Part shown: positions 9,001 through 12,000 of the stretch, piece after piece
Layout: every line of letters begins with the position of its first letter
Numbering within the stretch: position 1 is the first letter of the stretch
Program-made: the position numbers
Origin: Nitrospirae bacterium CG2_30_53_67
GTDB lineage: Bacteria; CG2-30-53-67
Direction: 5' to 3'
DNA: 43,673 nucleotides
Assembly: GCA_001873285.1 (NCBI GenBank)
Contig: MNYV01000120.1
Coordinates: forward strand, 1-43,673

Positions 9001-12000
9001 TAACACCAAGCTTCTCTACGTCTTCTTCCAGGAAACCCAATTTCCAGACGGCTGTCTCAAGCATCTTGTCGGTTGTCTCATAACTGGTCTCCCAGCTCCC
9101 TGCATATTCACCCATGATCTTCTGCAGCCTGAATAAGAAACTGTGCGCTGAGATATAGTTTGGATTCACTTCTGCGCTTGTTGTGTATCCCTTCTTCTCC
9201 TCATAGAGGGCAACCGGCTTAAATACGATTTCCTTGAGTTTCTTTATCGTGTCATCAGATACAGTAGGCGTGTAGCCCTTATGGTCATAGGCGTACTTCA
9301 CTGCTGACTTTGCTGCAATCCTTCCCTGCGCATGTGAACCGCTTGAGAACTTATGCGCAGATGCGCCTACGCCGCAGCCTGCTGTAAATAGACCCTTGAC
9401 CGTAGTCATTAGGTTATACTGCTCAGGGAATGCATCAGCGTATTCCTTGGGCATCAGGTCATCAGCGCCGCGGACCCAGGCGCCGCAAGAGGCGGCATGT
9501 GAACCGATAAAGCAGGGGTCTCCCAACTGAAGCTCCGAAGGTTTTTCCAATGGGTCAATATTCAGCGAAGCCCAGAGGGTTGCGCCTGCAATCGTCATAT
9601 CCAGGAAGTCCTCCCAGGATTCCTGTTCATACTTTTTAAGCTCTTTTTTCTGCGCCTTCGGGTCTGTGACCTCCTTTTTTATCCTCTCCGTTACCTTTTC
9701 CGTATGCATGAGCAAGGGCGACTTACCGGCCTTGGTTGCGAGGATCATCTCATAGTTTCTCACAGGAGTCGGACAGGGCTTTACCTTTGAATATGGCGCC
9801 CACTTATCTGTCTCTGATTTGTATGCAAAAACATATGGATCCCCATAAACATCCGTTGCAGGCGTCTTAAAGAGAAGGAAGAAGGTCCCGACGGGTCCAT
9901 AGGCATCCTTGAACCTTGGAGGGATAAACGGCACATCCATCTGTGTAAGCTCACCGCCTGCCTGTAAAATGAGTGAATAAGTTGAACCTCCAAGCCACGG
10001 CGGCATCCAGGACCTCCCGAAGCCTTCACCCTGAGACCTGGGCCTGAATACATGGACCGCGCCGCCCAAACCGCAGTAAACCGCTTTTGCCTTAAACACG
10101 TAGAATTTGTCTTCCCTGACGCTGAAGCCCACCGCGCCGCAGACCTTGTCGGTCTCTTTCTCATCATTAAGCAGGTGCGTAATATAGACCCTCTCAATGA
10201 GCTGACCCTTATCACCGAGGGCGCCTAATGCGTTCTTTGCCGCCTCTGCCACGATGATCTTGTAGCTCTCGCCTGATATTGCTATCTGCCATGCGCCTGA
10301 TTTAGCATAATTCCCTGCCTCATCCTTCCATATGGGAAGACCCCATTTATCAAAACTCTTGACAGAGGAATCCACGTGCCTTGCGACATCATAGACGATG
10401 TCCTGCCTTGTTAACCCCATCTGGTCATTCGTCACATATTTCACAAAATCTTCGGGTGTGTGCTGATCATGTGTGACCTTTCCATCCAATCCCATATAGG
10501 TATTAATGGCAGAAAGTCCCATGGCAACAGGACCGCTCCTGTCCACAGCGGCCTTATCTACCCAGGTTACCTTTAACCCCGCTGCCTTCGCCCAGTAGGA
10601 AGCCTCTACTACAGCGCCGCAGCCTCCCATCCCTCCACCGAGTATCAATATATCGGTATTAACAACCTCTGTTGCAAATTCTTTCATGTTTTCTCTCCTT
10701 TTTTATTTATTTTTTTGTCGGGAGCTCTTTTACTCCCAGCATATCCGGCTCTGAAAACAGCAATTGACTGTTTAAGTCCGCCACCTTTGCCTCAGGATAC
10801 CCCTCAAGCGCCTTTATGGAACCCTCTGGTGTAGTCCTTATCGGATACTTGAATCTCTTGATCCTTCCATCCCTGTAGGTGATCGTCCACATGATGTCCT
10901 CTGTCCCTCTCAGGGGAGTTGATGAGGCGCCGAGGGGCATAAAGTCTGCATAACCCCTTACATCCATAGCCTGCTGGGGACATATCTTTACACAACAGTA
11001 GCACTCCCAGCAATAAGTAGGCTCCTGATTGTAGGCCTTCATCCTTTCCTTGTCCAGGAACATCAGGTCATTCGGGCAAATATACATACATGCAGTCTTA
11101 TCCTGCCCTTTACAACCGTCGCATTTTTCTGTCATTACGTAACTTGGCATCTTTAATCCCTCCTTAAAAACGTTAAATTAGGATGACTAAATCCTTTCCT
11201 TATTAAACATTAAACAGAAGCGTTCTCTTTCTCCTCTTTGTTTGTCGTTCCACCTCCCTTCACGGTTTGATCGGTCTGTTGCATAGTTGTGAGCCGTTCC
11301 TGTGCAGGAACAGAGTTTGAATGAGCGATTTGAGGTAAGCGAGAGCGTCATAAAAATCCGAAAGAGAAAAATAGTTTCTAAAATTAGAATATTAATATCT
11401 TCTAATAACTATAGAAAGTAAAATTAATAGTTCTTATCCAATCTTTAGAAAATATTATAGGGACCTCTCGTCTACCCGGAACGAGACAATTTTATAAGAG
11501 ATCCCGGATAGGAATTAAAATACTAATACGATCAAAAACAGGAATCAAGATAAAACATTAAAACCATACATTTGTAATTCTTATAAACGTATTAAGATAT
11601 ATAATTATTAATAATCATTATTGAACAAACAAGAGTAGAACGCTGTTTGATGACTGCTTCAATGATGGAACCTTTGGGGGATGCGGCTTTTGATGACCGT
11701 CAATCTTCATATTACCCGGGCGGCCAATGCATGGGCCGCCCGCCCAGCAGATGGATATGAAGGTGGAACACGGTCTGCCCGCCGTGAGGGCCGGTGTTGA
11801 TCACGAGCCGGTAGCCTTTCTGATCCAGCTTGAGCCGTTTGGCGATCTCATGTGCGGCCCTCATCAGGTGGTGTAACAGTCCATCCGGCGCAGCATCAAT
11901 CTCGTTTAAGGATTTAAGATGGACCCTGGGAATGATCAGGAGATGTACGGGGGCCTGTGGATTGACGTCCCGAAAGGCCAGGCAATGCTCATCTTCATAA

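Follow-up and report, generated by a model that had tools for sequence, protein, structure and literature searches.

To our knowledge, almost nothing is known about how the genes of sulfate respiration are controlled outside Desulfovibrio, and we know of no study of promoters in the phylum considered here, whose 14 species genomes are all from uncultured organisms. The Rex operator consensus is an inverted repeat of the TTGTGAA-N4-TTCACAA type, and the rrn P1-P2 pairs of E. coli are tandem promoters with AT-rich upstream (UP) elements. In a rex mutant of D. alaskensis G20, qmoABCD, sat and the genes for adenylate kinase and pyrophosphatase are de-repressed, and apsAB is predicted to have conserved Rex sites (PMC4045070); a common regulator of the PPi and APS steps is therefore not a new idea. 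The long primary transcript of cry3A in Bacillus thuringiensis is cut back to STAB-SD, a stabiliser that resembles a Shine-Dalgarno sequence (PMC4113751). The locus analysed here resembles the Desulfovibrio Rex regulon in having one type of cis-site common to sulfate-reduction and pyrophosphatase genes, but the motif differs and the pyrophosphatase is the membrane enzyme HppA, which is linked to the site in one genus only.

The window is a 43,673-nt stretch of the genome of Nitrospirae bacterium CG2_30_53_67 (G000; 2.37 Mb, 95% complete). It carries aprB (10707-11150) and aprA (8762-10687) on the minus strand, the strand of all the features described below, and both genes were assigned by Pfam and by the NCBIfam aprB and aprA equivalogs. 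The genes served by the apr leader are thus aprB and aprA (8762..11150), with the aprB ATG at 11150. Since sat and qmoABC follow downstream of aprBA on the same strand, the leader may serve the whole sulfate activation/reduction cluster, although there is a terminator-like hairpin 3' of aprA.

Within the leader lies an AT-rich stretch of ~85 bases with an invariant 11-mer, ATATTCTAATT, at its end. The whole element (11379..11470), delimited by alignment and blastn as the homology unit shared with a copy in front of hppA (G000, C105:5526-5611), is 229-320 nt upstream of the aprB ATG, which corrects the 150-230 nt given in the genome-wide survey's note. The observation made in that note, i.e. 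a conserved element with a second genomic copy, was borne out as a whole: the element before aprB recurs before hppA over a local alignment of ~84 nt, and a blastn search of G000 with the 570-nt spacer returned C105:5526-5606 (74% identity, E 2.2e-6). The exact 11-mer does occur only twice in G000, at C109:11382-11392(-) in the apr leader and at C105:5529-5539(-). A further 26 places with one mismatch had been said to lack the second box; 25 of them do, but the remaining one is inside the hppA leader itself.

Among the relatives, blastn with the spacer found the block in G005 (two places), G002 (two), G003, G007, G006, G001 and G004, and tblastn of the surrounding genes placed the element before aprB at nine loci and before hppA at two. 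The 11-mer is identical in all 11 aligned copies, including the nine aprB loci of the family, as the note had claimed for all five genera; this claim holds for eight of the nine genomes, but in G008 neither aprB nor hppA was detected. Around the eleven invariant columns the flanks diverge across the five genera, with a mean column identity of 71% over the 11 copies. In G004 only AATAAT-A-ATATTCTAATT is kept while the three upstream boxes (a-c, below) and the -35-like hexamer are lost, so that the 11-mer is selected independently of the other boxes. G002 has two apr loci, one resembling that of G003 and the other that of G001, so that the copies represent about five independent lineages, not ten. 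Between G000 and G005 the leader from 11591 to 11412 is 93-95% identical, and the upstream coding genes are 80-95% identical.

Judged by this conservation, the element is a strongly constrained, genuine cis-element of the apr leader. The alternative that it has no specific function, its AT-rich leader DNA persisting through common ancestry and its match at hppA arising by chance or neutral duplication, is in our opinion very improbable. AT-rich words do match widely: a two-box pattern matched at least 119 stretches of genome contigs, in unrelated genomes, and among the matches listed three lay with aprB or hppA (L032, L046 and L042), the others listed being AT-rich chance matches that are uninformative on distribution. 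Such matching does not account for eleven columns that never vary among the 11 copies, which come from five genera and have diverging flanks, for a leader better conserved than the adjacent coding DNA, or for an apr-hppA match at the E-value given above. Both halves of the element are also unique in G000 at high PWM score (left-half matrix from 10 of the 11 rows, G004 being left out; right-half matrix from 11 rows): the PWM scan gave no convincing further target in this genome, the next sites scoring 20.6 vs ~36 for the left half and 25.4 vs ~30.6 for the right. Likewise, when a sequence-only profile of the 11 copies was searched from the family up to the phylum (at most 14 genomes), only the training copies were recovered at E ≤1.5e-11, and the next matches had E-values of 0.011 and weaker. 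The element is absent from both dsrA upstream regions and from the spacers that precede sat, qmoA and the CxxCxxCC genes.

The copies share a common anatomy. In gene sense, box a (TATAAT, family ATAAY; 11454..11459) comes 21 nt before box b (ATAAGAAC; 11430..11437), which in turn starts 11 nt ahead of the start of box c (TTAATTTTAC, family TTAACTTTAC; 11417..11427), giving the consensus order ATAAY, 21 nt to ATAAGRA, 11 nt to TAAYTTTAC. Both distances are fixed in the 10 of 10 copies that have the boxes (for the G000 hppA copy, the 21 nt was obtained by letter count and from gap-free alignment rows), and TAAYTTTRC is found in 10 of the 11 copies, being absent from G004. Box c contains a -35-like TTTACT (11417-11422), 17 nt from a -10-like hexamer, GATATT (11394..11399, family nATAAT), whose ATA is invariant and which ends one base before the 11-mer (11382..11392). 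Across the family the layout is TTTRCN, 17-18 nt, nATAAT, ending 2 nt before the 11-mer or overlapping it by 2 nt. With a promoter defined as hexamers 16-18 nt apart, the -10 having A as its second base and T as its sixth, this layout, which we term P2, was present at a fixed place in eight of the nine apr leaders and one of the two hppA leaders, with scores of 8-9 of 12. The G000 hppA copy has one extra base in the spacing, and its hexamer at this place, AATATC, does not end in T. The G000 apr hexamers are weak (TTTACT and GATATT, 8 of 12), and a promoter scan of 11100-11760 at ≥9 of 12 returned no sites, against a mean of 1.7 in shuffled sequences. In DNA this AT-rich, -10-like hexamers are possible in many registers.

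Box a had been described as a TATAAT-like box. It does not behave as a conserved -10, since five of the 11 copies have ATAAC and so miss the final T, G006 has GACGAC, and the box is covered by an RNA-library contig (below). An alternative promoter in the hppA copies, made up of box a (GATAAT) and a TTCCCA or TTTCCA located 17-18 nt before it, scores 9 of 12; if it were used, the remainder of the element would be transcribed.

A second candidate promoter, P1, lies ~125 nt upstream of the element (11520..11548). It is of sigma-70 type, with TTGATT (11543-11548), 17 nt and TAGTAT (11520-11525), and is better conserved, having the same layout in all nine apr leaders; the G000 P1 is below the 9-of-12 scan threshold. 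Upstream of P1 is an AT-rich, UP-element-like block (11566..11622), which forms a separate blastn block in G006, G007 and G004 and contains ATWAGAAT, a word like box b and like the reverse complement of the 11-mer. Calling the element promoter-proximal, as the survey's note did, is thus incomplete: the better conserved P1 stands upstream, and the element itself contains a -35/-10 layout. The arrangement is like that of E. coli rrn P1-P2 in that two sigma-70-type candidates ~125 nt apart, the first with an AT-rich block upstream, form a tandem pair before a very highly expressed operon; unlike in rrn, the apr P2 start region is invariant and AT-rich, and the starts are predicted from sequence. 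In a sister family there is a single canonical promoter (TTGACS, 17 nt, TATAAT-like) ~180-215 nt before aprB, a distance closer to that of P2 (~240) than to that of P1 (~365).

The element would accordingly be a portable, DNA-level promoter-operator cassette with a putative factor at the start-site box, which we consider the best reading and to which we give an even chance. In its favour are the hexamers kept in place, the fixed box spacing, the autonomy of the hppA copy, the module boundary at the predicted start, the constraint on the leader, the lack of an RNA explanation and the sister-family promoter; against it stand the weak G000 hexamers, the G004 copy with its 11-mer but no -35, the imperfect layout of the G000 hppA copy, the alternative promoter at box a, the RNA-library contig that begins upstream of the element (below) and the absence of an adjoining regulator gene or of a further target in G000. 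The element would be P2, the downstream member of a tandem pair in the apr leader, with P1 (TTGATT, 17 nt, TAnnAT, and the AT-rich block upstream) also transcribing through it. P2 would consist of the -35-like TTTACW in box c, 17-18 nt, the -10-like nATAAT and then ATATTCTAATT at the predicted start, near 11385-11387, so that the 11-mer would span about -5 to +6. As a core promoter needs no invariant start region, we infer that a lineage-specific protein binds the 11-mer; this putative protein would gate initiation at P2 and possibly block read-through from P1, and the phased upstream boxes might serve as contacts for the alpha-subunit or an activator.

Conservation of P1 in 9 of 9 leaders is also what would be expected if P1 were the sole apr promoter and the element, with no promoter of its own, an array of protein sites in the early transcribed region, e.g. 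for a roadblock or looping repressor acting on the ATWAGAAY-like boxes at 11566-11622, box b and the inverted 11-mer. The words themselves lend this some support, as the block ahead of P1 contains ATTAGAATA in the forward orientation, the 11-mer gives this word as its reverse complement, box b reads ATAAGAAC, and in G000, G003 and one G002 locus (G002a) the 11-mer forms an inverted repeat with ATTAGAA 10 nt upstream; the RNA-library contig described below, which starts upstream of the element, fits as well. However, the inverted repeat is absent from G006, G007, G001, the other G002 locus (G002b) and both hppA copies, the hppA copy is without P1 so that the cassette would need another promoter there, and no candidate regulator was found, with neither a Rex box nor a rex gene. 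We therefore regard an operator of this kind as unlikely.

The hppA loci bear on where the module ends. hppA was found in eight of the nine genomes, always behind pth (8 of 8 loci), and the element is present at only two of these, in G000 and G005, which belong to one genus (g1). The claim that the PPi and APS steps share a cis-regulatory site thus stands for the hppA genes of these two genomes but does not extend beyond the one genus, i.e. 2 of 8 loci. The pth-hppA spacer is ~190 nt with the element in the two g1 genomes; without it, the spacer is ~45-100 nt in G007, G006, G003 and G004 and ~150 nt in G001 and G002. Similarity between the apr and hppA copies stops at ATATTCTAATTTTA, the 3' end of the 11-mer, and apr conservation between genera falls directly past the 11-mer. 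The G000 and G005 hppA loci are identical at an orthologous level up to this point and then match at 4-6 of 20 positions right past it, and their HppA proteins are only 59-61% identical. From the alignments, one genus gained a copy of the element in front of its pyrophosphatase gene, transplanted without P1. The homology break just past the 11-mer fits a boundary between promoter and transcript better than it fits a site within a transcript, and copying of the cassette into the pth-hppA spacer would have placed hppA under its own apr-like control. Distant homologues have apparently replaced the genes downstream of the cassette, aprBA in G000 and hppA in G005, while the cassette itself was kept, so that here regulatory DNA would neatly have outlived the genes it served.

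Two contigs from a metatranscriptome (RNA) library match the apr locus at 11047-11256 and 11320-11473 with no differences from the leader, DNA possibly being present in the library and assembled contigs being unable to show RNA starts or ends. The contig from 11473 covers the whole element, including box a; it starts 14 nt ahead of box a and 51 nt ahead of the -35-like hexamer. If it is RNA, at least some transcription begins further upstream, as P1 would predict, and the element also forms part of a 5' UTR. The other begins at 11256, inside the GAAGGGAGGTG box, this being a contig end and not an RNA end. The stretch 11474-12300 is without a matching RNA contig, which has no bearing on where transcription starts. 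The GAAGGGAGGTG box (11251..11261), a Shine-Dalgarno-like sequence that precedes the real ribosome site by ~100 nt, does not vary among the nine apr leaders, in agreement with the note's claim of its conservation. Its GGAGGTG pairs with CACCTCC at the 3' end of the G000 16S rRNA, and the ORFs around it vary in frame and start between genomes; being 16S-complementary and starting no conserved ORF, it has the sequence character of a STAB-SD. The box, not the element, is therefore like the cry3A stabiliser in being SD-like, far from the start codon of a long leader and complementary to the 16S 3' end; in this analogy the element, upstream of the box, would belong to the part that is trimmed away.

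These contigs, which span the whole element, raise the possibility that the 11-mer is a site in RNA: lying in the unstructured AU-rich leader of a P1 or pth read-through transcript, it would be the target of a small RNA, of an endoribonuclease or of a protein of Hfq or S1 type, and would govern how the long leader is processed or decays as far as the SD-like box. The length of the leader, the contig that begins in the GAAGGGAGGTG box at 11256 and recalls cry3A trimming, the retention of the 11-mer without the -35 boxes in G004 and the AAUAAU-type triplets ahead of it are all compatible with such a role. On the other hand, contigs cannot show RNA ends, boxes a-c, the -35-like hexamer and the fixed spacing have no obvious function in RNA, and homology is lost sharply just past the 11-mer. 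Covariation, a conserved partner and an Rfam family are lacking too. No Rfam family was found in the spacer, as reported before, the best E-values (0.39 and 0.54) being on the opposite strand and far below gathering scores. The search for a pairing partner of the 11-mer gave none that is conserved, the best duplex targets being scattered (-2.9 to -8.2 kcal/mol), and no compensated conserved structure involving the element emerged from this search or from RNAalifold on the segment upstream of the element. The predicted unpaired probability of the 11-mer (0.34-0.94 vs a leader average of 0.39-0.47) had no consistent pattern, being higher than the average in six of nine leaders, equal in one and lower in two. 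The conclusion that no structured RNA explains the element is supported, and we think a site in RNA improbable.

Regarding the factor that the promoter-operator reading calls for, no regulator gene adjoining apr or hppA was found. No Rex box (≤3 mismatches to the consensus) is present in the leader; the whole window has two matches with 3 mismatches, both inside aprA, where 1.27 would be expected by chance. A search for the Rex DNA-binding domain (PF06971) returned no rex gene in the 95% complete G000, while control genomes were matched. Our literature searches found no work treating aprBA and hppA as a regulon, none on an aprBA promoter with a transcription start site, and none on metatranscriptomics of aprA and pyrophosphatase in Thermodesulfovibrionia. 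Overall the element looks like a lineage-specific promoter/control site and not a new kind of element. A more far-reaching proposal, which we offer tentatively, is that ATATTCTAATT is the recognition site of an undiscovered sulfate-reduction regulator, either a protein or a small RNA, in a phylum that would lack Rex, and that the 85-nt unit is movable, having recruited hppA and outlasted the exchange of genes. To specialists, such a lineage-specific promoter/operator region may be useful more than surprising: an invariant site before aprBA offers a handle for regulator pull-down, for reading apr in metatranscriptomes and for expression tools.

The apr leader has several further features. Between P1 and the element is a conserved YCCGGGTAR motif (11466..11486), which in G000 forms the loop of a 5-6 bp hairpin. 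This hairpin was rejected as a conserved structure: it is compensated in G000/G005, G006/G007 and G001, but the stem is lost in G003/G002a, and RNAalifold found only 4 pairs upstream of the element (-1.67 kcal/mol). The hairpin TTCCTGCACAGGAA (11297..11310), the TTCCT..AGGAA stem that the note held to be kept by the apr leader, is retained in eight of the nine leaders but not in the other. An ATG 37-42 nt past the 11-mer opens an ORF of 34-56 codons in 8 of 9 leaders. A conserved leader peptide was considered and rejected: its frame varies from genus to genus, it lacks a Shine-Dalgarno sequence, nonsynonymous codon differences exceed synonymous ones (32 vs 12), and mismatches fall at the three codon positions in the numbers 18/16/23. 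Finally, a stricter three-box pattern matched five loci in metagenomes, with AprB, AprA or HppA 99.8-100% identical to those of G000; these matches add no new diversity, but they do show that the arrangements at apr and hppA are also found in assemblies other than this one.

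The window carries a minus-strand gene cluster, identified with Pfam and NCBIfam, that consists of aprB (10707-11150), aprA (8762-10687), two CxxCxxCC-domain genes, qmoA, qmoB, qmoC and sat (588-1811); all other window features described here are also on the minus strand. The end of a HIT-family (HinT-like) gene (11712-12056) and aprB are separated by 561 nt, and the element (11379-11470) falls within this spacer. The words noted in it earlier were all read back in the sequence i.e. TATAAT (box a, 11459-11454), ATAAGAAC (box b, 11437-11430), TTAATTTTAC (box c, 11427-11418) and the 11-mer ATATTCTAATT (11392-11382), although the distance to the aprB start codon is 229-320 nt rather than the 150-230 nt claimed. 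The position of the HIT-family gene directly upstream of the apr leader, where its 3' end could be aligned at eight of nine loci, may point to a conserved connection with adenylyl-sulfate metabolism.

We recounted the exact 11-mer in the 2.37-Mb genome (G000) and, as the genome-wide survey's note had stated, found two occurrences, before aprB and before hppA. The statement that 26 one-mismatch versions lack the second box held for 25 of them; the other sits in the hppA leader itself. The two copies can be aligned across about 84 nt, and blastn with the apr spacer retrieved the hppA place (E 2.2e-6) together with matches in the relatives G003, G002 (two), G007, G006, G005 (two), G001 and G004. 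According to tblastn, aprB stands behind nine copies and hppA behind two. The nine aprB loci, all with the 11-mer, come from eight of the nine family genomes; neither aprB nor hppA was found in the ninth, G008. The reported invariance of the 11-mer was borne out, as it is identical in all 11 aligned copies, the mean column identity being 71%. The element is genuine and under strong constraint; that a sequence conserved in this way has no specific function seems very improbable. Weight matrices of either half found nothing comparable elsewhere in G000, a profile from the 11 copies found no additional one when run over family, order, class and phylum (14 genomes altogether), and the sister-family apr leaders are GC-rich and without the element. 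The copies are related by descent, and since one aprBA locus of G002 is G003-like and the other G001-like, only about five lineages are independent. These two element-bearing loci (L006 on G002:C5 and L010 on G002:C34) are near-identical, one to that of G003, which is another genus, and one to that of G001; since the G002 assembly has 89% completeness and 3% contamination, one of the two may sit on a foreign contig or have been transferred.

Box a (ATAAY) and box b (ATAAGRA) are 21 nt apart in all ten copies that have both, the value for the hppA copy of G000 being taken from the letters and a gap-free alignment. Box b and box c (TAAYTTTAC) are 11 nt apart, again in ten of ten, and the 11-mer follows box c at 34 nt in seven copies, at 32 nt in two and at 35 nt in one. 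Box a had been described as TATAAT-like; with ATAAC in five of the 11 copies and GACGAC in another, it is not a conserved -10. In G004, boxes a to c are lost and AATAAT-A-ATATTCTAATT is retained. A one-mismatch 11-mer, ATTTTCTAATT, stands just before the hppA ribosome site (G000:C105:5465-5480, minus strand) and, in both G000 and G005, members of one genus, CCTAATTT stands ahead of the aprB ribosome site; neither is conserved beyond that genus.

Alignment of the 750 nt before aprB at nine loci resolved the whole leader into a series of conserved blocks: an AT-rich UP-like block (about 11622-11566), a candidate promoter P1 (11548-11520; TAGTAT as its -10 in the window), a YCCGGGTAR motif (11486-11466), the element, a TTCCT..AGGAA hairpin downstream of it (8/9 leaders), a GAAGGGAGGTG box (11251-11261, identical in 9/9) and, last before aprB, the ribosome site. 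Within the AT-rich block is the word ATWAGAAT, similar both to box b and to the 11-mer read as its reverse complement. A simple hexamer scan found P1 (TTGATT or TTGAAT, 17 nt, TAnnAT; TTGATT in the window) at a constant place in all nine apr leaders. A second candidate, P2 (TTTRCN, 17-18 nt, nATAAT), lies inside the element, at a constant place in eight of nine apr leaders and one of two hppA leaders, ending two bases ahead of the 11-mer or reaching 2 nt into it. As both score only 8-9 of 12 and a stricter scan found no site in the G000 leader, they are candidates backed by conservation, not score. The most likely reading, to which we give about an even chance, is that the element works as a portable promoter-operator cassette. 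It would contain phased upstream boxes, a -35 (TTTACW) and a -10 (nATAAT), the 11-mer would be an invariant start-site box bound by a putative factor, and the cassette would form the downstream member of a tandem pair of apr promoters and would have been copied to before hppA in one genus. We also weighed an operator array without promoter activity and find it unlikely.

hppA is present in eight of nine genomes and is preceded by pth in all eight. The pth-hppA spacer is roughly 45-100 nt in G007, G006, G003 and G004 and about 150 nt in G001 and G002, in each case without the element; in G000 and G005 it is about 190 nt and mostly element. The hppA copy is confined to the genus, as noted earlier, with two of eight hppA loci carrying it, and is an insertion-like, genus-specific acquisition. 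It is 66-72% identical to the apr copies of the genus, about the same as the apr-apr distance between genera, and the copying is therefore not recent.

The apr-hppA similarity ends at ATATTCTAATTTTA. The hppA loci of G000 (C105:5440-5540) and G005 (L187, on G005:C2) are alike across pth and the element, with 4-6 of 20 bases identical directly past the 11-mer, and apr conservation between genera drops at the same point. The three comparisons share one end point, which would coincide with the predicted P2 start of transcription. HppA of G000 is 59-61% identical to that of G005 and 75-81% to those of other genera; since the DNA homology goes exactly as far as the 11-mer's 3' end, the hppA 5' UTR and gene were exchanged as a unit. 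Upstream of apr, G000 and G005 (L002) share genes that are 80-95% identical and a leader (11591-11412) that is 93-95% identical, with AprB only 64% and AprA only 49% identical; the AprB nearest to that of G000 is G004's (74-75%). This suggests that in G000 a distant homologue took the place of aprBA and the leader stayed as it was. With AprB, AprA and HppA diverged and the leaders kept, the control region thus appears to have persisted through exchanges of its downstream genes.

The element could instead be an AU-rich RNA site inside the P1 transcript, which we consider doubtful. In metatranscriptome run X1, 61% of sampled words of aprBA and the leader are present, and within 10300-12300 two contigs match the sequence perfectly, one over 11047-11256 and the other over 11320-11473. 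The latter covers the entire element and starts upstream of box a; if these contigs are RNA, some transcripts begin upstream of the element, consistent with P1, bearing in mind that such libraries can include DNA, that contigs cannot reveal RNA ends and that the uncovered stretch upstream of 11473 is no evidence either way. A renewed Rfam search of the leader gave no match, in agreement with the earlier one, and for the 11-mer we found no conserved pairing partner, its duplex targets being scattered (-2.9 to -8.2 kcal/mol), and no consistent pattern of predicted accessibility relative to the rest of the leader. Between P1 and the element there is a small hairpin with compensatory changes in some lineages; G003 and one G002 locus (G002a) do not retain it. 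An ATG 37-42 nt past the 11-mer (11340-11352) opens an ORF of 34-56 codons in eight of nine leaders; it was rejected as a conserved peptide, having no coding signature, no Shine-Dalgarno and another frame in G003 and G002a. The GAAGGGAGGTG box, inside which an X1 contig starts (at 11256), lies about 100 nt upstream of the true aprB ribosome site and pairs with the 16S 3' end of G000. It is possibly a STAB-SD-like stabiliser resembling that of cry3A (PMC4113751), a likeness that concerns the leader and not the element.

The Rex repressor of Desulfovibrio alaskensis regulates qmoABCD, sat, adenylate kinase and pyrophosphatase, and sites are also predicted at apsAB (PMC4045070); a link between PPi removal and sulfate activation is therefore already known from that source. 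Unlike in that regulon, no Rex-type box was found in the apr leader and no rex gene in G000; the factor that would bind the promoter-operator cassette, if any, differs from Rex.

A degenerate, weak relative of the element's left half occurs at G000:C75:18257-18334 (minus strand) and G005:C113:46439-46509 i.e. TAAGAAAT.ATTGACTTTAC with a canonical TTGACT, then TATAAT. In G000 these words are followed by a long perfect hairpin, about 260-390 nt upstream of a gene conserved in both genomes; the relative may represent a small-RNA gene or a further promoter built in this style. Directly 3' of aprA, a hairpin of high GC content, GGAGGGGCG...CGCCCCTCC, and the AAAAATTT behind it (about 8696-8724) form a possible terminator or attenuator between aprBA and the downstream qmo and sat genes. 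The two CxxCxxCC-domain genes between aprA and qmoA (6682-8761) are paralogous and are bordered by palindromic repeats GTCATTCCCCGA...TCGGGGAATGAC, which are REP- or MITE-like elements; like repeats precede dsrA on G000:C88. G000 has two dsrAB loci (C174:552-2842 and C88:3155-5432), both with dsrA above the curated cut-off.
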